A DNA stretch of 64,000 bases, taken from assembly GCA_030583805.1 (NCBI GenBank), contig CP129476.1, positions 818,497 to 882,496 of the forward strand, given 5' to 3'. This document shows, piece after piece, positions 15,706 to 58,314 of the stretch; the stretch's first letter is position 1; each line of letters begins with the position of its first letter. This DNA is from Patescibacteria group bacterium (GTDB lineage: Bacteria; Patescibacteriota; Patescibacteriia; SG8-24; DYFX01). The translations under genes were made by a program, and so were the position numbers. Below the pieces are notes generated by a model. The model worked only from the letters and a program-made list of their open reading frames with translations. It was not told the origin of the DNA and ran no database searches.

Positions 15706-15883
15706 ACATCGTATATAAGCCGGTGCGCCGAGTAGAGGCCCGCTCGAGGGCCGAAACCGAGCTGCGCGGCAGGAGTTAAGTACGCGGGAACACTAACAAA
15801 ATGGAGCAAAGGCGTCAAGTATCACGCGATTTAGCAGCTCCGCTACATTAACATGTAGCTTAAGACTAATTTGACAATTATGT

Positions 15884-15912
15884 GGATAATTCTTGACAAA
15901 ATCTTATGTTTT
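15884..15912 (+). promoter_or_regulatory. Near-consensus sigma70 promoter on the plus strand.
   Basis: TTGACA, a 17-nt spacer and TATCAT; a second TTGACA lies 13 nt upstream. Confidence 0.45.
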
Positions 15913-15920
15913 TGGTATCA

Positions 15921-23942: not shown

Positions 23943-24017
23943 TGGGGCGGCCAGAGGGAATTGAACCCTCGTTCGCGGAACCACAATCCGCTGTCCTACC
24001 ATTGAACGATGGCCGCC
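23943..24017 (-). tRNA. tRNA-His (GTG) with an encoded G-1 and an encoded CCA.
   Basis: Cloverleaf: G-1, acceptor GCGGCCA / TGGCCGC, anticodon loop TTGTGGT, T-arm GAGGG-TTCAATT-CCCTC. Coordinates +/-2. Confidence 0.85.
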
Positions 24018-24021
24018 ATGC

Positions 24022-24098
24022 TGGTGTCCCCGGCAGGAGTCGAACCTGCAACCCTCGGGATAGAAGCCCGATGCTCTATCCAATTGAGCTACGGAGAC
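24022..24098 (-). tRNA. tRNA-Arg (TCT) with an encoded CCA.
   Basis: Acceptor GTCTCCG / CGGGGAC, anticodon loop CTTCTAT, T-arm GCAGG-TTCGACT-CCTGC. Coordinates +/-2. Confidence 0.85.
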
Positions 24099-44364: not shown

Positions 44365-44380
44365 CTGCGAAAAAAAATAA

Positions 44381-44412
44381 GAGAGCCGGCCCGAGGGGGC
44401 TGGCTCTTTGCG
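44381..44412. terminator. Strong bidirectional terminator closing the minus-strand islet.
   Basis: agagccggcccgagggggctggctct, followed by ttgcgtt on the plus strand and by ttatttttttt on the minus strand. Confidence 0.55.
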
Positions 44413-44423
44413 TTCCGGCCGAG

Positions 44424-44657
44424 TTACGGCTGGAACGTCTTGTCGTCGGGTCCGAGTCTGTCGGGCCCGTCGAGCGAGTCGTGGATCATCCGCTCGAAGC
44501 GGTCGGTGTCCTCGATGGTGACGGGGATGGTACCGAGCGGCTGATCGGGATCGATGCCGTCGAAGACGGGATCGGCGCTCGGCTCGGCATCGTTCTCCGC
44601 GAGGTAGCGGAGGATGGCCTGGTCGAGGCTGTCGTCGGGCGGAACCTGATTCTTCAT
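44424..44657 (-). CDS. Islet ORF 9: small, highly acidic protein (77 aa).
   Basis: Asp/Pro-rich; its start overlaps the stop of the upstream gene by 4 nt. Confidence 0.45.
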   Translation of the reverse strand: MKNQVPPDDSLDQAILRYLAENDAEPSADPVFDGIDPDQPLGTIPVTIEDTDRFERMIHDSLDGPDRLGPDDKTFQP

Positions 44658-44908
44658 CGGATGCCTCCTTCTGCGAGGGCGAGGTTGGGCCCGTTCTCGT
44701 GGAACGGGACGTTGGTGGCGGGGATCGCCTTGTTGGTCGCCGGGTCGTGACGGCTCAGCTCAGCGTCCACCGTGCTTCCGGTCTCGTGGAGACCGTACGC
44801 GACGGCGCTGACCATGAGGAACACCATGACCGTGACGAACGTCTGGATGATCCAGGTGTTGAACTCGGTACGGTACCGGAGTCCGGTCTTCTGGGCGGTT
44901 TCGTCCAT
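44654..44908 (-). CDS. Islet ORF 8: single-TM small protein (84 aa).
   Basis: TM IIQTFVTVMVFLMVSAVAYGL. Confidence 0.45.
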   Translation of the reverse strand: MDETAQKTGLRYRTEFNTWIIQTFVTVMVFLMVSAVAYGLHETGSTVDAELSRHDPATNKAIPATNVPFHENGPNLALAEGGIR

Positions 44909-44923
44909 GTACGGTTCTCCGTG

Positions 44924-45355
44924 CTAGCGGTTGTCGCGCGGCTTGCTCGTGTCGTAGGCGGCCAGGAGCAAGCTCCGCCGCTCGTCGACGATGAACAAGA
45001 TCTTGATCTCGAAGTCCTTGAGCATCGTGTTGCCGTTCACGTCCGGGACCTTCTCATCGTTCATGTAGAAGGGTCGGGAGAGACTGAAGTCGCTCGCGAG
45101 CTCGCAGATGATCTCGCTGCGCTTCTCCTCGGGGTGAATGATGCCGCGCTCTTCGGACAGCCTGCGGTAGTTCCCGAACGCCTGCATCGTGACGAGCACC
45201 GTTCCGACATGCGGATTGGTGACGGTCACTGGCACGTTCGTGAGGCCGCAGGCGAGGATGTCGACGCCGTTCAGCATGAGATGGCCAGGCCGCTTGGGTC
45301 TCGGGTTGGGGGTGGAAGCGGGGGCTTCTGTGGCGATGGCACGCAGTGCGGGCAT
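44924..45355 (-). CDS. Islet ORF 7: hypothetical (143 aa).
   Basis: Preceded by intergenic element family 1, copy 1. Confidence 0.45.
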   Translation of the reverse strand: MPALRAIATEAPASTPNPRPKRPGHLMLNGVDILACGLTNVPVTVTNPHVGTVLVTMQAFGNYRRLSEERGIIHPEEKRSEIICELASDFSLSRPFYMNDEKVPDVNGNTMLKDFEIKILFIVDERRSLLLAAYDTSKPRDNR

Positions 45356-45394
45356 GGTGAACTCCGTCTGTGTGGTGGCGGGCGGTGAAGGAGC

Positions 45395-45480
45395 AGCCGT
45401 TTCAGGGCTCCGGCGTCCGGCAGAATTGCGCGGGCACCAGAGGCTGAAGTGGACACGATGTCCACCCAGAGGAAAGAACG
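45395..45480 (-). repeat. Conserved intergenic element family 1, copy 1 (contains the perfect palindrome GTGGACATCGTGTCCAC).
   Basis: About 85% identical to 46410-46498; lies between the stop of ORF 6 and the start of ORF 7. Confidence 0.6.
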
Positions 45481-45497
45481 AGGTGCGGCCGCGAACG

Positions 45498-46382
45498 TCA
45501 GGCGACGTTGGCCATCAGGTCGCGGGCGGCTTCGAGGTCGCAGGGATCCGCCATGGCCGCGGCCAAGGCGACGTGATCGGGGTTCTCGGGGTCGAGACCC
45601 TCGATCATCATGAACGCGAGGAGATCCGGATCGATCTTGGGCTCCTCGGCGGTGGCGTCCGCAACCTCGTGGGCGGCGTCGGTGTCGGCGACCGTCTCGG
45701 GCTCCGCAGCCTGGGGCGGGGTTTCCGTCTCGATGTCGTTCGCCGCTTGGGTCTGCATCACGTCCCGCGCGAGCGCCGCGAGCGGCGTCATCTTGGCACG
45801 AGCCTTCGCGCGTTTGTCGAGCTCGATCACGACCTTCTCGGCGAGCGCCATCATCGCATCGAGCTTGTCGAGCTGACCCTGGTGGGCCCGCTCGGCGCGC
45901 TCGATCTGCAGCGTATGCCGGATCTTGCCGGCCTCACGCTTGTACTGCTCGGCCAGCACCGTCGGATAGTACGCGGCCCAGAGTTCGAGGTGCGTCGCCC
46001 GGCGCTCCAAGTTGGAGGACGTGAGCGCGGCGATCTCGGACTGGAACTCCGCGGCCTTCCGCAGCTTCTTCATCGTACGCGTGTACGACAGCTGGCGCTC
46101 CAGACGCGCGATCTCCTGGTCGGTGCGCAGGGCGCACTCCCAGTTGTCGCGCATGCGGCGCTTGAGCTTGGCCGTCTCGGCGTCGCACGGCGGCTTTGCG
46201 TAGAACGCATCGAGCTGCGTCTTCATGCGCGCGATCTGCACCGGCGCGGTCTCGATCTCCAACGTGTAGACGGCGAGCGTCTTCAGGTCTTCGCCGAGCT
46301 TCATGCCGGTCTTGACGTCGCTGAGAACGAACTCGTCGATCTGGCGGCACAGGTTGCGGAAACGGTTCAGGGTGTTCGTCAC
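45498..46382 (-). CDS. Islet ORF 6: coiled-coil protein with an acidic C-terminal region (294 aa, GTG start).
   Basis: Heptad-rich (LERQLSYTRTMKKLRKAAEF ...); RBS gaggtg. Confidence 0.5.
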   Translation of the reverse strand: MTNTLNRFRNLCRQIDEFVLSDVKTGMKLGEDLKTLAVYTLEIETAPVQIARMKTQLDAFYAKPPCDAETAKLKRRMRDNWECALRTDQEIARLERQLSYTRTMKKLRKAAEFQSEIAALTSSNLERRATHLELWAAYYPTVLAEQYKREAGKIRHTLQIERAERAHQGQLDKLDAMMALAEKVVIELDKRAKARAKMTPLAALARDVMQTQAANDIETETPPQAAEPETVADTDAAHEVADATAEEPKIDPDLLAFMMIEGLDPENPDHVALAAAMADPCDLEAARDLMANVA

Positions 46383-46409
46383 GGTGCACCTCGCTTGGTC
46401 AATGAACGT

Positions 46410-46498
46410 TGCGGTTCAGGGCTTCGGCGTCCGGCGGTATTGCGCGGGCGTCGGAGGCTGAAGAGGACACGATGTCCTCCCAGAGGGACGAAGAAAGG
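46410..46498 (-). repeat. Conserved intergenic element family 1, copy 2 (palindrome GAGGACATCGTGTCCTC).
   Basis: Same architecture as copy 1; the outermost palindrome positions differ in both arms so that the palindrome stays perfect. Confidence 0.6.
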
Positions 46499-46504
46499 AG
46501 CGGC

Positions 46505-47905
46505 TCAGCTGCGCGTGAGCGTCTGTGCGACGGGCGTGCCCGTGATGCTGTGAGCGTTGTAATACCACGTTCCGTCGTTGCTCCAAAGCATACCGTAGCC
46601 GAGCGCGCCTCCCGTGAGGACGTTCGCCAGCGTGGTGTCCACGCCGCTTCCGGCCAGGACGCCTTCCGCGAAGCCGGCGACGTCGCGTGCCAGCGTGGTC
46701 GTTAGCGTCTCACCGCTTCCGTCAGCGCCGCTGACAGTGAGTCGAAGCTCGAGGCTGACGGTCGTGCCGGCGGCGATAATGATCGGCTGGTCGAACACTA
46801 CTCCGGCGCAGACCTCCGAGGTGCTGGCGCCAAAGCCGCAGGTCTGCCCGGCATACCCCAGATAGGAGGTTCCGGCAAGATCGCCGCCCATGCCGAGCTC
46901 ACGAATCCTCGGGGCTTCGACCGTGATGGAAGGATTCGTGTTCACATGGAACGAGAGCTTCTTCACGTGGATGTCCGCACCGGTGTCGGCAGTGATCGCG
47001 ACGCGCGCAACGACTTGCGTGCCATTGGACAGCACGTTCGTCGGCAGCGGCAGCACGGAAATGACGGGCGTCGTCATCGGGACGGACGGACTGGTCGGCT
47101 CGTTGGCCACCAGGTTCGTGAACGGCCCGACAATGCCCGTGTTCGGATGGATATCCTCTACGAGCACCGGCGTTTCGTCGTCGACGCGAACCATGTCACC
47201 CAGCATCGGCGAACCGAGTTGGATCTGGATCTCCGTGCCGTCGAGCGCGACGTTGTTCGCCGTATCTAGGTAGACGCACAACTGCGTCGGCCGATGTGCT
47301 TCGAGGAGGATGATGTCGACGAGATCGATCGGCTGATACGTATCATTGCCTGTTGCATCAACGTCGCGCGGACCGGCCACGACGTTGATCCCGTACAACA
47401 CCTTTATGTCGGTGAAGTTCGGGCGGAGCGTCGCGGCGGACGTGTCGACGAGGCCGCCGGCGGCCGTGTTCTCGCCGATGGCGGCGATAAACATCCGCAG
47501 GCGGCGTACTTCGACATCGACGTTTGCCACGGCGGTGAAGCAGAACACGGGGATGTCCTGCGCGCCGACGGAGCGCTCGTACTGGAACCCGACGTTGAGC
47601 GCCATGTCCACGCGAGCGCGTTCGACCGGCGGACTTTCGGGATCCGGCGGCTCGACCACGACGATGTTGTCGCCGCAGTCCACGGGATCGTCACCTTCGA
47701 CGGTGACGCAGCCGGTCGCGAGCTTCACGATGGCGATCGCGAGGATGTAGAACGGGAGCCCGCGAAGGCTCCACTTCAGGAGCGTGATCTCACGGGGGTT
47801 GGAGCAGACGTTCTTCATTCCGGTCTCCTTGTTGTACGGTACGGCGGTTTTTGTCTGACGATGCGGTCGTTTCCGGCATCGGGCCCCGAAACATTCGGGA
47901 GCCAA
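46505..47905 (-). CDS. Islet ORF 5: large Thr/Val/Gly-rich lipoprotein (466 aa).
   Basis: Lipobox LATGC after an N-terminal TM/signal; beta-rich repetitive composition. Confidence 0.55.
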   Translation of the reverse strand: MAPECFGARCRKRPHRQTKTAVPYNKETGMKNVCSNPREITLLKWSLRGLPFYILAIAIVKLATGCVTVEGDDPVDCGDNIVVVEPPDPESPPVERARVDMALNVGFQYERSVGAQDIPVFCFTAVANVDVEVRRLRMFIAAIGENTAAGGLVDTSAATLRPNFTDIKVLYGINVVAGPRDVDATGNDTYQPIDLVDIILLEAHRPTQLCVYLDTANNVALDGTEIQIQLGSPMLGDMVRVDDETPVLVEDIHPNTGIVGPFTNLVANEPTSPSVPMTTPVISVLPLPTNVLSNGTQVVARVAITADTGADIHVKKLSFHVNTNPSITVEAPRIRELGMGGDLAGTSYLGYAGQTCGFGASTSEVCAGVVFDQPIIIAAGTTVSLELRLTVSGADGSGETLTTTLARDVAGFAEGVLAGSGVDTTLANVLTGGALGYGMLWSNDGTWYYNAHSITGTPVAQTLTRS

Positions 47906-47962
47906 TTGCGGAAGGGGAGGTCGTCACGCTCCCCGAGACTGAGATGAAGCGCGAACGCTTCA

Positions 47963-48130
47963 GACGACGGCGGCACCGACGCTGATCGCCAAGAGGGCGA
48001 TCAAGAGCAGGACAGCGAGCACTGCGCCGTGGCCGAAGGGCCAGTTGTACGCAGCCGAGTAGCGGCTGCAGTCCTCGTACCAGGCGGTAGCCCGGATCTT
48101 CTCGGTTGAGGCGGTGATCATCTTCATCAC
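47963..48130 (-). CDS. Islet ORF 4: micro-protein with a C-terminal TM (55 aa).
   Basis: MKMITASTEKIRATAWYEDCSRYSAAYNWPFGHGAVLAVLLLIALLAISVGAAVV; its start overlaps the ORF 3 stop. Confidence 0.35.
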
Positions 48131-48132
48131 GA

Positions 48133-48285
48133 GGCCTCGTTGAAGGTGCGGATGAACTCTTCGGCGTTCTCGAGCTCCTCCTCGTCGATGAGGAAGGCGC
48201 CGTCGATGCCGCGGAGGTCGTGCGGGGCGATCTCGATGATGATCTCGATCGAAGGACCGTATTCGGTCTGGTCGTGCATGGCGTA
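48133..48285 (-). CDS. Islet ORF 3: acidic micro-protein (50 aa).
   Basis: MHDQTEYGPSIEIIIEIAPHDLRGIDGAFLIDEEELENAEEFIRTFNEAS; preceded by family-2 element copy A. Confidence 0.35.
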
Positions 48286-48299
48286 GCTCCTGGTTGGTG

Positions 48300-48406
48300 G
48301 TTGTTGTGTCGATCTGTCCGACGCTCCTGTCGCACCATGCGGCAGAAGGTCCGGATGAATCGCCCCGCGGTTGCCCGCGGGGGATGAAGCGGATGGAGCG
48401 GAAGGA
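48300..48406 (-). repeat. Conserved leader element family 2, copy A.
   Basis: cccccgcgg-gcaa-ccgcgggg hairpin, then cgattcat ... ccttct ... cgcatggtgcga ... gatcgac ... cacaac, then ATG. Confidence 0.5.
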
Positions 48407-48898
48407 TCAGCGCTGGTTGCGGAGCTGCTCGCGGATCTCGCCGTCGTAGGGGACGAGGCCGCGGCCGCGCACGAGGACGGTGACGCACGTCTTGCGATCG
48501 GGCAGCTTGCTCCGATAGCGCTGCGCGTAGTTCTCGCACGAGCGCGGGCCGTTGGGCGGCTTGCGCTCGTTGGGCGTCAGGCTGGCGAGCGTCTCGGCGA
48601 CCTTCAGGCACAACGCGTCCTTGAGGTCCTCCTCGTCCGGCACGTACGGCTCGCTCTCGTCGATGATCTGATCGACCGTTTTGAAGACCGAGGTCTTCGC
48701 GCGAAGGTCGTTGTTGCCGTGATCGAGCTCGGCGGCGTCGTAGAAGTGATGGAACGAGGGCGCGTACCGGCTGACGAAGGAACCCTTCAGGTTCTCGGCG
48801 CGCAGGCGCCGGTCGTCCATCTCGTCGAGCGGCTTCGCGTTGAGCTTGGTCAGCAACTCCATGCCGGTCTTGGTCTCGGGCTTCGAGTAGTTGGACAT
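48407..48898 (-). CDS. Islet ORF 2: hypothetical (163 aa).
   Basis: Preceded by family-2 element copy B. Confidence 0.45.
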   Translation of the reverse strand: MSNYSKPETKTGMELLTKLNAKPLDEMDDRRLRAENLKGSFVSRYAPSFHHFYDAAELDHGNNDLRAKTSVFKTVDQIIDESEPYVPDEEDLKDALCLKVAETLASLTPNERKPPNGPRSCENYAQRYRSKLPDRKTCVTVLVRGRGLVPYDGEIREQLRNQR

Positions 48899-48917
48899 GT
48901 CAGGCCTCCTGCGGTGC

Positions 48918-49030
48918 GGGGTTGTGCGGTCGATCCATTCCGGCTCTCCTCATCGCACATGCGTGAGAAGGCCCAGAGTGATCGCCCCGCGGAAGAAGTT
49001 CCGCGGGGGAGGTGAGGAAGTGGGATGCGC
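48918..49030 (-). repeat. Conserved leader element family 2, copy B.
   Basis: cccccgcgg-aacttctt-ccgcgggg hairpin, then cgatcact ... ccttct ... cgcatgtgcga ... gatcgac ... cacaac, then ATG. Confidence 0.5.
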
Positions 49031-49314
49031 TAGGCGGCGGCGAGCCAGGGGTCGTCGGCGCAGCCGAGGAAGATCGAGATGTCGTCGGTCAGCTGGGCGC
49101 TGAGGTAGCCGCCGTGCTGCTTGAGGATCACCTGAAGATCCTCGTCGGCGCCCTCGATGAGGGCTTCGGCGGCGATCTCTTCGATGACGTCATGGGTGCG
49201 CGGCGAGCACTCCTCGAACGGATCGATCTCCGCGAGGAAGTTGTAGACGAGGCTGGCAAAGGGAAGGTGCGCGTGTGCTTTCATGGTCAGCTCCGGTGTG
49301 CAGGTGGACAACAC
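49030..49314 (-). CDS. Islet ORF 1: small acidic protein (94 aa).
   Basis: First gene downstream of the consensus promoter. Confidence 0.45.
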   Translation of the reverse strand: MLSTCTPELTMKAHAHLPFASLVYNFLAEIDPFEECSPRTHDVIEEIAAEALIEGADEDLQVILKQHGGYLSAQLTDDISIFLGCADDPWLAAA

Positions 49315-49345: not shown

Positions 49346-49385
49346 CCGAATATAACACAAAAACACGCTTTTGTCAATGGTTTCC
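49346..49385 (-). promoter_or_regulatory. Consensus sigma70 promoter driving the islet.
   Basis: Minus sense: TTGACA, aaagcgtgtttttgtgt (17 nt), TATATT. Confidence 0.6.
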
Positions 49386-49519
49386 GACAGAATAAATGCG
49401 GTAAAATAAGGCTAGAAACTGAGTGCTAGCCTTAAAAACGTCAATAAAACATGAAACATATTGTGAAACAGCAGGAGCATTTTCTTGACAGGTTTTATGC
49501 CACGTGGTAGTGTGCGACG

Positions 49520-49748
49520 TTGCTTGAGCACCGCGCTCGACATCCCTGTTACAGCCCGACCGTTTTCGGACCCATTCGCATCTGGTCTCTAGAAACTCGC
49601 GCTCACGACAAGCATGGAGGTATCTCATAGGGTACTTCGGGCTCCGGCTCGAACGCTTCTATAAGACACCTTCTTGAGCGCGATTTTCTGCAGACCACTC
49701 CGAAAACAATGGAGAAGAAAAAGACCCCGCACTGCGGGGTCTTTTGTT
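49520..49748 (+). ncRNA. Candidate ~225-nt non-coding transcript (putative promoter at 49485-49518, terminator at 49717-49748).
   Basis: TTGACA, 17 nt, TAGTGT; no ORF; long-range pairing of gttttcgga (49567) with tccgaaaac (49697); terminator gaccccgcactgcggggtc followed by ttttgtttc. Confidence 0.2.
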
Positions 49749-52073: not shown

Positions 52074-52182
52074 ATCCCTGGGAAAGATATGAATAAGAAC
52101 CATTTTCAGTGTACTTGGTCTTTTTACGCTCCGCAAGCCCGCTTTTTGGCTCAATCTTAGCCAAAATAGTGTCAAAAACTCT

Positions 52183-52211
52183 TGACAAAACCTTTGATTT
52201 ATGCTAGACTG
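52183..52211 (+). promoter_or_regulatory. sigma70 promoter for the 52311 gene.
   Basis: TTGACA, a 17-nt spacer, TAGACT; about 95-nt leader. Confidence 0.5.
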
Positions 52212-56436: not shown

Positions 56437-56859
56437 TTACGGCGTGGCCGTCGTGGCGCGGATGACCGCGTTGATGATGAAGCCGGTGAGCGCGTAGGCC
56501 AGGAAGATGATGATGAGACCGATGATGCACTGCTTGATGATCTCTTTGGCCTTGTCGATCGGGTCGCTCTCGCCGCGCGCCGTCATCCAGAGGAAACCGG
56601 CGTAGACCATGAGGACCAGGAAGATGATACCGAGGAGACCGAGGAGCGTGCGGATGATGCGGCCGATGATGAGCGGGAGCTGCTGGCCAGCCGTGGCGGC
56701 GTCGCCGCTGTTCGGGTTCGGATTGGCGGCGTTCAGGCAGCCAAGGGCGTTTCCGGTGCTCGGGTCGCAAGGAGCTTGCGCGCCGACGGGCATCGCGACC
56801 AGGGCCATCTGACTCATGGTGAGGAGCGAGATGAAACCCAGAAGAAGTTTCTTGAGCAT
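56437..56859 (-). CDS. TrbC/VirB2-like (T4SS-type) pilin paralog 1.
   Basis: Signal peptide, then IIGRIIRTLLGLLGIIFLVLMVYAGFLWMTARGESD ... IIGLIIIFLAYAL: the two-TM pilin core. Confidence 0.6.
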   Translation of the reverse strand: MLKKLLLGFISLLTMSQMALVAMPVGAQAPCDPSTGNALGCLNAANPNPNSGDAATAGQQLPLIIGRIIRTLLGLLGIIFLVLMVYAGFLWMTARGESDPIDKAKEIIKQCIIGLIIIFLAYALTGFIINAVIRATTATP

Positions 56860-56884
56860 ACGATGTGAGGTGATTAGCAGGGGA

Positions 56885-57223
56885 TTAGGCGCCGGCGGCC
56901 GGAGCGGCTGTTCTGGCGACTGCGTTCAGGACGAACGCGGCGATCGCGTAGGCGGCGGAGATGATGATGAGTCCGATCACGGCGTTCTTCAGCAGTTCCT
57001 TGGCGTGCTTCACCTTGGCATCATCGCCTTGCGCCGTCAGCCAGAGGTAGCCGGCGTAGATGATCAGCACCATGAAGACGATGCCGAGGAGCCCGATGAA
57101 GGTGCGTACGAGGTTGCCGATGAGTTCCGGAAGCGTGGTCGGCGAGTTGAGGTTGGCCGCTTCGGCGACGTCGAGCAGTTTGTCCGCACCGAAGTTCTGA
57201 GCCAGTTTTTGCATGTCAGCCAT
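56885..57223 (-). CDS. TrbC/VirB2-like pilin paralog 2.
   Basis: LIGNLVRTFIGLLGIVFMVLIIYAGYLWLTAQGDD ... IGLIIISAAYA. Confidence 0.6.
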   Translation of the reverse strand: MADMQKLAQNFGADKLLDVAEAANLNSPTTLPELIGNLVRTFIGLLGIVFMVLIIYAGYLWLTAQGDDAKVKHAKELLKNAVIGLIIISAAYAIAAFVLNAVARTAAPAAGA

Positions 57224-57234
57224 AGATGGGGCGC

Positions 57235-57804
57235 TTACGAGGCCTCAGCGCAGAGGCCGAAGCTGCAGGGCTGCGCTTCGCTTCCGATCGACGGGTCGCC
57301 CTCGCCGAGGCATTCGCACGTTCCGGTGTAGCAGTAGTTGCCGGGAACGCTGCAGTCCGAGGCGGTCGTGCACGTACGCGTCGTACATTCGTTCGTATCG
57401 ACCGTGATCGGCGTTGGGCCGTTCGGGTCGGACGCCGAGCCTGAGGAGGCTGTACCGGCTACGGCATTGATGACGAAGGCGGTGAGCGCGTACGACGCGG
57501 CGATGATGATGAGTCCCGTGACCGCTCCGGAAATGATCTTCTTTGCCGTATCGATTTTCTTGTCGTCGCCCCGGGCCGTCATGTAGAGAAAGCCGGAGTA
57601 GAGCATCAGGATCAGGAACAGGACGCCGAGATAACTGAGCACCGTCTGGATGAGCCGGCCGATCGTGGCCAGCAAGTCTTTGTTGCCTTTGAGCGAAGAC
57701 GGGGCGGCGGCATCAAGGCCGAATTGGGCGTAGACGTCGGGCAGTGCGACGAGCATGACGGCCACGAGGCACAGCGCCGGAAGAAGAATGCGTTTCAAGC
57801 GCAT
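57235..57804 (-). CDS. TrbC/VirB2-like pilin paralog 3 with a Cys-rich C-terminal extension.
   Basis: Pilin core IGRLIQTVLSYLGVLFLILMLYSGFLYMTARGDD, plus a C-terminal CTTRTCTTASDCSVPGNYCYTGTCECLGEG ... C. An alternative start lies at 57855. Confidence 0.55.
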   Translation of the reverse strand: MRLKRILLPALCLVAVMLVALPDVYAQFGLDAAAPSSLKGNKDLLATIGRLIQTVLSYLGVLFLILMLYSGFLYMTARGDDKKIDTAKKIISGAVTGLIIIAASYALTAFVINAVAGTASSGSASDPNGPTPITVDTNECTTRTCTTASDCSVPGNYCYTGTCECLGEGDPSIGSEAQPCSFGLCAEAS

Positions 57805-57915
57805 ACGTAGAGTGAGTTCAAGGGATCCGGAGATACCGGCGAACGTCGCCGGCATCTCCCGAGACCTTGTGACGACGCCCCGATTCGCATCGGGGCGTCG
57901 CGGTAAGGCGTTGTA

Positions 57916-58314
57916 CTAGGCGGTCGTAGCGGTCACGAGACTGTTGATCACGAACGATGCGATCGCGTAAGCGGTCAAGATGATGATCAAGCCGATAATA
58001 CCGGCCGTGATGATCTTCTTGGCGTCGCCGACGGCTTCATCGGAACCACCGGACGTCATCCATTTGAAACCTCCGTACAGGATGATCATAACGGCAATGA
58101 TACCGAGTAGGCTCATGGCCGTGCGGACGATACGCGCGATCGTGATGCGCAGGTCCTGCTGTTGCTGGCCGAGCTCGGTCGCGATTTGACCGGGCAGGAG
58201 CTCGTTGGACGTCACTGCACCCTGGGCCAAAGCGACCATCGGGAGCGCCATCGTCGCGAGCATTGCCGTACTGATCAGACCCTTGACAAGCGTTTTCTTC
58301 GTCATGCAAATCAC
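57916..58314 (-). CDS. TrbC/VirB2-like pilin paralog 4.
   Basis: IARIVRTAMSLLGIIAVMIILYGGFKWMTSGGSDE. Confidence 0.6.
   Translation of the reverse strand: MICMTKKTLVKGLISTAMLATMALPMVALAQGAVTSNELLPGQIATELGQQQQDLRITIARIVRTAMSLLGIIAVMIILYGGFKWMTSGGSDEAVGDAKKIITAGIIGLIIILTAYAIASFVINSLVTATTA

Follow-up and report, generated by a model that had tools for sequence, protein, structure and literature searches.

A stretch of 64,000 nucleotides from the genome of a Patescibacteria group bacterium (GenBank assembly GCA_030583805.1, contig CP129476.1, positions 818,497 to 882,496; hereafter the window) carries two similar intergenic elements in one minus-strand operon, each with a perfect palindrome that is changed in both arms between the copies. 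What kind of element keeps its palindrome perfect through such changes, and does it act as RNA or as DNA? As described below, the palindrome is the first hairpin of a two-hairpin module that occupies every long spacer of the operon and covaries among related loci. Among the explanations considered, we prefer intercistronic mRNA punctuation, i.e. processing and stability hairpins, with a confidence somewhat short of even.

The repeats consist of two abutting hairpins

In the window, a repeat finder reported a two-copy family at 45398-45478 and 46412-46492 (81 nt, 86% identity, without gaps). Alignment with MAFFT showed that the similarity begins about 12 nt ahead of the palindrome and stops shortly past CCCTGAA. 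The initial annotation, made from the sequence alone, had described two such copies, and its palindromes were recovered letter for letter: on the minus (transcript) strand, copy 1 reads GTGGACA-TCG-TGTCCAC (45449-45465) and copy 2 reads GAGGACA-TCG-TGTCCTC (46463-46479). Both are perfect over 17 nt and differ by one compensated A-T/T-A swap. The surrounding minus-strand open reading frames (ORFs) encode 437/466, 294, and 143 amino acids, and the ORF map agreed with the earlier placement of each copy between a stop codon and the next start codon inside an operon. The 13-nt core GGACATCGTGTCC has exact matches in the window at 45451-45463 and 46465-46477 only. Likewise, a 49-nt degenerate pattern for the second half of the element matched these two sites only, with 0 matches in 100 shuffles.

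The element had been regarded as a palindrome followed by a tail. The palindrome stood, but the remainder is no tail: on folding, each of the two copies gave a GC-rich hairpin, H1, followed by a second, longer three-tier hairpin of ~48 nt, H2, with no spacer between them. H1 in the window copies is the palindrome itself (7 bp, 3-nt loop). H2 has a base UUCAG/CUGAA and a 1x2 internal loop (C versus CC); these are followed by a second stem of 8 bp, in which mismatches or G·U pairs occur, and by a short stem at the tip. Overall, it measures 48-50 nt with 16-20 pairs, internal loops, and one or two positions that are bulged or mismatched.

Modules of the same architecture, overlooked before, are present in the operon's other three long spacers. 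The operon (here called the islet) and its modules are given below in window coordinates. Bit scores are those of a covariance model, R1, which found 17 forward copies (16 distinct), and L003 is a related locus introduced in the next section.

44424..49314, minus: operon of nine ORFs, A to I, which holds all modules
46463..46479, minus: H1 of type I copy 2, GAGGACA-UCG-UGUCCUC, spacer between E and F; the L003 orthologue is identical
46415..46462, minus: H2 of type I copy 2, second stem with two A·C mismatches; R1, 85.4 bits
45449..45465, minus: H1 of type I copy 1, GUGGACA-UCG-UGUCCAC, spacer between F and G; the same variant follows F in L003
45401..45448, minus: H2 of type I copy 1, second stem with two G·U pairs; R1, 86.2 bits
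47871..47934, minus: type III module, spacer between D and E, H1 GGGGAG...CUCCCC next to an abutting H2 with base UUCCG/CGGAA; distantly related to type I
48310..48382, minus: type II module (repeat D16), spacer between B and C, H1 CCCCGCGG-GCAA-CCGCGGGG abutting H2 with base CGAUU/GAUCG
48931..49008, minus: type II module, spacer between A and B, H1 CCCCGCGG...CCGCGGGG abutting H2 with base CGAUC/GAUCG

Thus, all five long spacers of the operon contain an H1+H2 module, and these fall into three sequence types. R1 matched type III weakly (47870-47931, 18.9 bits); orthologues of this type are present in loci L011 and L015, and type II copies also in L011, L013, and L020. The two type II copies differ by a compensated change in an inner stem (CUUCUC/GAGGAG between A and B versus CUUCUG/CAGGAG between B and C). 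What the three types have in common is architecture, not sequence. The module-bearing spacers are 118-148 nt long, and all copies lie between a stop and a start codon and have the same orientation with respect to transcription. Between the end of H2 and the start codon are 31-46 nt, and the ribosome binding site is left uncovered. The overlapping or tightly spaced pairs C/D, G/H, and H/I have no module. In L015, the B-C spacer is only 39 nt long and lacks the module, which constitutes a presence/absence difference from the window.

Several ordinary explanations of the spacers were rejected. A scan for intrinsic terminators found none in them: the letters after H1 are UUCAGCC and those after H2 are ACGG or CCGC, with no U-tract. 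Genuine U-tract terminators flank the operon, so the genome uses ordinary terminators and its internal hairpins are without a U-tract. No promoter-like site was found in the spacers either. Translational coupling, in which a CU-rich (CUCCUU-like) tract behind the stop codon would pair with the Shine-Dalgarno sequence of the next gene, was discarded after analysis of 17 spacers, in which the duplex energies did not surpass those of composition-matched shuffles; this pairing is often drawn in minimum free energy folds. A small ORF within the element (GTG in the palindrome, GGAGG ahead of it) was dismissed as well, since most copies have no start codon and length shifts of 1-2 nt in H2 break the frame.

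The modules form a family found in one operon

Homologues of protein F led to the loci L003 and L004 (67% and 37% identical), and a degenerate DNA pattern was then scanned over sequence collections. Among 185,579 species genomes, true matches were obtained in L011 (Minisyncoccota metagenome-assembled genome (MAG)), L015 (Patescibacteria MAG), L013, and L014; a metagenome collection added L020 and L023, and a close homologue of G gave locus L025. In a viral contig collection, only chance matches without hairpins were seen. Every true collection match proved to be a homologous islet. L013 (CAZKMF010000085.1) and L014 (CAYYII010000031.1) are contigs binned as uncultured Gammaproteobacteria that bear the Patescibacteria islet; L013 encodes a VanW protein 74% identical to that of the window together with E, F, and modules. 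Both contigs are probably mis-binned.

In total, 16 distinct copies were collected across seven related loci of a small clade of Patescibacteria, every one of them in the operon that lies between the VanW and ClpP genes. R1 found nothing comparable outside the islet, neither in the 64-kb window nor in the flanks of the related loci. No module matched Rfam in the window at the gathering score, and between 44000 and 50000 no match overlapped a module up to an E value of 10. No description of such elements in Patescibacteria turned up in the literature. The modules are thus a family of structured elements new to Rfam, with the covariation support described below.

Pairing is maintained while sequence changes

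Covariation was computed on an alignment fitted with R1; MAFFT could not set the H1 arms in structural register. In the 16 distinct copies, 86.8% of the cells at paired positions were able to pair, compared with 36-52% when the partners were slid by 1-3 columns. Changes on both sides were found in 9 of the 25 pairs (32 cells), and none of 500 shuffles equaled the observed covariation score. One position of H1 occurs as G-C, A-U, and U-A. The earlier suggestion to look for further copies and to build a covariance model was therefore borne out: copies exist in related loci, and both stems covary.

H1 is always present and always paired, and its sequence is variable. The stems include GAGGACA/UGUCCUC, GUGGACA/UGUCCAC, GGGGAUGC/GCAUCCCC, GGGGACG/CGUCCCC, and GGGGAC/GUCCCC; their length ranges from 6 to 12 bp and that of the loop from 3 to more than 17 nt (UCG, CCG, CUC, UUCG, UCCC, or longer). 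L003 and L015 each hold three different, unrelated H1 sequences. In H2, the interior varies yet stays paired, while the base CUUCAG/CUGAA(G) and the C/CC loop are invariant in all 16 copies.

An enlarged H1 was noted in L011 (2640-2692) and L015 (4836-4876). Both contain a nested palindrome with the shared motif CGTTCG...CGAACGAC, which looks like a small secondary insertion into the H1 loop.

These data bear directly on the choice between an RNA stem and a dyad-symmetric operator, which had been left undecided. A double-stranded DNA operator for a dimeric regulator would account for the palindrome, which in either window copy is perfect around a 3-nt centre. It would not require compensated changes, and a conserved half-site would be expected of it; the half-site is not conserved, two or three unrelated H1 sequences occur per genome, and stem and loop lengths vary. 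Because unrelated H1 sequences within a single genome accompany compensated changes, we conclude that pairing is selected rather than the sequence of a half-site. The many double changes in the 16 copies thus support a folded single strand and disfavour the operator. The related idea that the elements bind an islet-encoded DNA-binding protein did not hold: none of the islet proteins resembles a nucleic acid-binding protein, and none is basic except one tiny membrane protein. Together with the lack of promoter-like sites in the spacers, these findings make an operator highly improbable.

The modules are also better conserved than their surroundings. Orthologous elements share 93% identity between the window and L003 and 78% between the window and L004. 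The corresponding values for gene F DNA are 79% and 66%, whereas gene E reaches 57-60% and the VanW gene 75-79%. The A-T/T-A difference between the two window copies is old: at the orthologous junctions, L003 carries both variants as well. That the window holds just two type I copies, separated by 1 kb, would fit a functionless local duplication of recent date. Such a duplication is practically eliminated: both copies and their compensated difference recur in L003, the elements have diverged less than the adjoining genes, and diverged copies exist where the F proteins are only 37% identical.

Selfish palindromic repeats inserted in the spacers and devoid of operon function, such as REP (repetitive extragenic palindromic), MITE (miniature inverted-repeat transposable element), or Correia-like elements, were likewise considered. 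The modules are palindromic, modular, and intergenic; the B-C spacer differs between the window and L015 by presence or absence; and nested palindromic insertions reside in the H1 of L011 and of one L015 copy. Such repeats should be dispersed, but the true matches of the genome scan lie in the homologous islet only. Moreover, orthologues at the same junction are conserved beyond the neighbouring genes, and terminal repeats with target duplications are not evident; at the B-C site of L015, the flanks are too diverged to define a target duplication. Selfish repeats are thus very unlikely.

Gene order changes within the modules

Gene adjacencies differ among the genomes: E-F, F-G, F-X, X-G, X-F, and E-G were all encountered, and the breakpoints of these changes fall within the elements. 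X is an extra gene of L003 (2510-4288; 592 amino acids), which is bracketed by modules. It is a paralogue of E (46505-47821), a lipoprotein with the lipobox LATGC; both are internally duplicated lipoproteins, as seen from two BLAST segments. H1 goes with the upstream gene, as does the 3' flank, and H2 goes mostly with the downstream gene. All five copies that precede F have one type of H2 throughout, irrespective of whether E or X lies upstream; for X, the gene-linked homology starts only past H2. The window copy between F and G is a chimera of the H1 of the L003 F-X module and the H2 of the L003 X-G module, joined in the invariant CTTCAGCC. The position of the breakpoint is not fixed; in one comparison it lies where H1 meets H2, in another at the 3' end of H2.

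This behaviour raises the main alternative to mRNA punctuation, namely that the modules act at the DNA level, either as folded single-stranded recombination sites, similar to attC but with a different core, or as plain conserved homology for the exchange of surface-protein cassettes. The variable adjacencies, the bracketing of X, the chimera, and the missing module in L015 fit this alternative, and the H2 geometry (inverted-repeat base, internal loop, second stem, variable tip) resembles that of attC. On the other hand, the breakpoints occur at no single fixed nucleotide, the cores do not match those of attC, H2 is shorter than known attC sites, and H2 goes with the downstream gene whereas attC goes with the upstream one. 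In addition, three unrelated core types in one array would not recombine together, and yet they share an architecture.

No recombinase, of the Phage_integrase family or otherwise, was found among the called genes of the islet and of the 10 kb on each side. F (45498-46382) gave a weak NCBIfam match to a tyrosine-type DNA invertase (E = 6.9e-5, 22.5 bits versus a cut-off of 222), which we regard as spurious: conserved catalytic residues are lacking, no integrase in the PDB was matched, and the predicted model is all-helical without a fold match (mean predicted local distance difference test score 75; long coiled-coil-like helices, acidic disordered C-terminal region). A hairpin of a diversity-generating retroelement was rejected because the window contains no template/variable repeat pair and no reverse transcriptase is encoded within 10 kb. 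On balance, recombination sites or conserved homology for cassette exchange appear unlikely. More specifically, the modules could belong to a previously unknown cassette system, integrase-independent or distantly encoded, in which H2 DNA (base CTTCAG/CTGAAG) would be cut and rejoined, swapping the genes for surface lipoproteins and their partners, in parallel to integrons and unrelated to them in sequence; this we consider quite doubtful.

A model for the function of the modules

Our preferred reading is that the modules punctuate the mRNA of the operon. It is favoured by the fact that the modules lie strictly between cistrons and share one orientation, in spacers of constant size, and most of all by the recurrence of one architecture in three unrelated sequences. 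The ends of the proposed transcription unit are as follows.

49349..49377, minus: sigma-70-type promoter of the operon, TTGACA, 17 nt, TATATT, with TG; 11 of 12 positions matched
44370..44408, minus: canonical intrinsic terminator after the last gene, I, a GC stem followed by UUAUUUUUUUU

A single long transcript, starting at the 49377 promoter and ending at the terminator near 44370, would carry all modules. H1 would cap the 3' end of the upstream cistron against 3'-to-5' exonucleases. H2 would serve both as the recognition and processing hairpin and as a 5' cap for the downstream cistron, its invariant base possibly being recognized by an endoribonuclease or an RNA-binding protein. The simplest candidate activity is RNase III-type cleavage of the irregular ~20-bp H2 helix; H2 indeed lies between cistrons of a promoter-to-terminator unit and forms an irregular helix spanning about two turns, and its shape (16-20 bp, internal loops) resembles that of RNase III processing sites such as those of T7. 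Cutting could thereby yield one mRNA per cistron, each with protected ends and a stability and yield of its own. The association of H1 with the upstream gene and of H2 mostly with the downstream gene is as expected for parts of a 3'- and a 5'-untranslated region, and gene shuffling at the modules might be a by-product of homologous recombination at conserved cores. In this model, we infer that the mRNA is the folded strand, that the modules are cleaved, and that the hairpins stabilize the products.

Several observations weigh against this model. At paired positions of the sense strand, 20 G·U and 23 A·C combinations were counted, so that the counts give no strand signature in favour of the mRNA. 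The summed H2 energies favour the antisense strand, with -429 versus -371 kcal/mol for folding as RNA and -229 versus -200 as DNA; the advantage comes mainly from the copies before F and X, and types II and III show no consistent bias. These strand comparisons draw on a small number of independent changes. The copy upstream of F keeps its two A·C mismatches in the window, L003, and L015. Furthermore, H1 and H2 abut, leaving no single-stranded linker for a nuclease specific for single strands; the alignment behind the covariation counts was fitted to the structure, and many of the copies are related by descent; and the change of gene order at the modules fits a DNA-level function, too. Because G·U and A·C are balanced, the sequence does not prove the RNA reading, and the balance as well as the slightly better folding of the antisense strand are as expected if DNA folds.

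Alternatively, a trans-acting factor may bind the modules as RNA and regulate without cleavage. It could be a translational repressor or activator of the downstream cistron, or the modules could be RNAs resembling put or EAR that make RNA polymerase resist termination along a long operon. All structural, covariation, and conservation evidence cited for processing signals applies here equally. That the CUUCAG/CUGAAG base and the C/CC loop are invariant while the stems around them vary suggests that the end of a helix is recognized by its sequence, and two adjacent stem-loops are the layout of HK022 put RNA. Translational control is at odds with the uncovered ribosome binding site and with a CU-rich tract/Shine-Dalgarno pairing no better than in shuffles, and five modules in 5 kb are many for an antiterminator. 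Rfam gave no match to EAR or other families, and no candidate binding protein is encoded in the islet. We therefore regard a non-cleaving binding site as rather unlikely.

Patescibacteria have very small genomes, yet this operon spends ~130 nt on a structured module in each long spacer, and the module has changed less than the fast-evolving surface-protein genes on either side of it. If the modules are processing or stability signals, they would offer a first handle on post-transcriptional control of operons in a phylum with almost no experimental RNA biology, as well as a compact design for a portable insulator. If, instead, they act at the DNA level, they would represent a new way to shuffle surface-protein cassettes in episymbiotic bacteria.

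Genes of the operon and its surroundings

The operon is flanked by a gene for a VanW-domain protein and by clpP; the window genes carry NCBI locus tags QY323_ (Patescibacteria MAG). Its promoter is conserved in L015, L013, and L020. Membrane proteins are encoded by D and H. Of the nine proteins A to I, none matched a family in Pfam, PHROGs, PADLOC, or NCBIfam, and the notion of a defence island or a phage-derived region was dropped on the same grounds. E evolves very fast: its orthologues are 35-38% identical where the VanW proteins are 74-84% identical. This difference suggests diversifying selection on a surface protein in the case of E and X.

Between the terminator of the VanW gene and the islet promoter lies a noncoding block of ~217 nt (49441-49715, read on the minus strand), with counterparts in L015 (about 2505-2720) and in the corresponding parts of L013 and L020. 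It is ~80% invariant across the four genomes (43 of 218 columns variable), compared with 75-79% pairwise identity of the VanW gene. The block folds as a long rod-like hairpin and has no Rfam match; its substitutions are too few to reveal covariation or strand. It may be an unannotated small RNA gene, one guess being a 6S-like RNA.

Elsewhere in the window, two AT-rich 42-nt segments (15876-15917 and 52165-52206; 71% identity) contain TTGACA and are probably related promoters; promoter regions of this genome are AT-rich, in contrast to the GC-rich modules. A repeat family, D1 (56464-58023), comprises four copies of an 87-nt segment (67-71% identity, spaced 454-542 nt) and probably represents tandem small paralogous genes for membrane proteins. 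Two adjacent tRNA genes on the minus strand (23946-24098) were the sole Rfam matches of the window at the gathering score.

Comparison with known systems

In mechanism, the nearest known systems are the RNase III sites of T7 and the intercistronic REP or puf hairpins; in the cassette pattern, they are integron attC sites. Integron cassettes and their attC sites share with the modules imperfect hairpins, conserved at their inverted ends and variable at the tip, placed between co-oriented ORFs of unknown function, as well as variable gene content and order with breakpoints in the sites. The cores differ: instead of RYYYAAC (R'') and GTTRRRY (R'), the module ends are CTTCAG and CTGAA(G) in 16 of 16 copies, and CGATC/GATCG and TTCCG/CGGAA in types II and III, respectively. 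Integron arrays are accompanied by an intI gene with attI and Pc; the modules have no intI or attI nearby, and no integrase was among the genes called in the 10 kb on each side. An attC site belongs to the upstream ORF and has a fixed crossover at R', whereas H2 mostly follows the downstream gene and the breakpoints vary. Finally, attC hairpins are 57-141 nt long with an unpaired central spacer and extrahelical bases; H2, at 48-50 nt and with a smaller loop, is similar in general shape.

The put RNAs of HK022 and the EAR element of Bacillus are, like the modules, cis-acting structured RNAs in or ahead of long operons, and put consists of two adjacent stem-loops. The modules differ from them in having no Rfam match, in numbering five per 5 kb, and in that no internal terminators are evident that would have to be overridden.

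REP elements and BIMEs (bacterial interspersed mosaic elements), e.g. between malE and malF, and the Rhodobacter puf hairpins are extragenic palindromes inside operons, as are the modules; the known ones stabilize upstream mRNA and set the ratios of cistrons. REP elements exist in hundreds of dispersed copies, have a GTAG head, and are linked to RAYT (REP-associated tyrosine transposase). The modules, in contrast, are restricted to one operon and have an invariant helix base of another sequence; they lack the GTAG head, and their 5' flank is a CU-rich tract ending in CUC(U).

The early and late mRNAs of T7 contain RNase III sites (R0.3, R0.5, R1.1), intercistronic hairpins of ~50 nt, and the hairpin that remains after cleavage protects the mRNA end. 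The modules show no sequence similarity to these sites, possess the abutting GC hairpin H1, and belong to a cellular operon of Patescibacteria in which cleavage is a proposal. As in T7, however, hairpins of ~50 nt that contain internal loops recur in similar form between the genes of a polycistronic unit.

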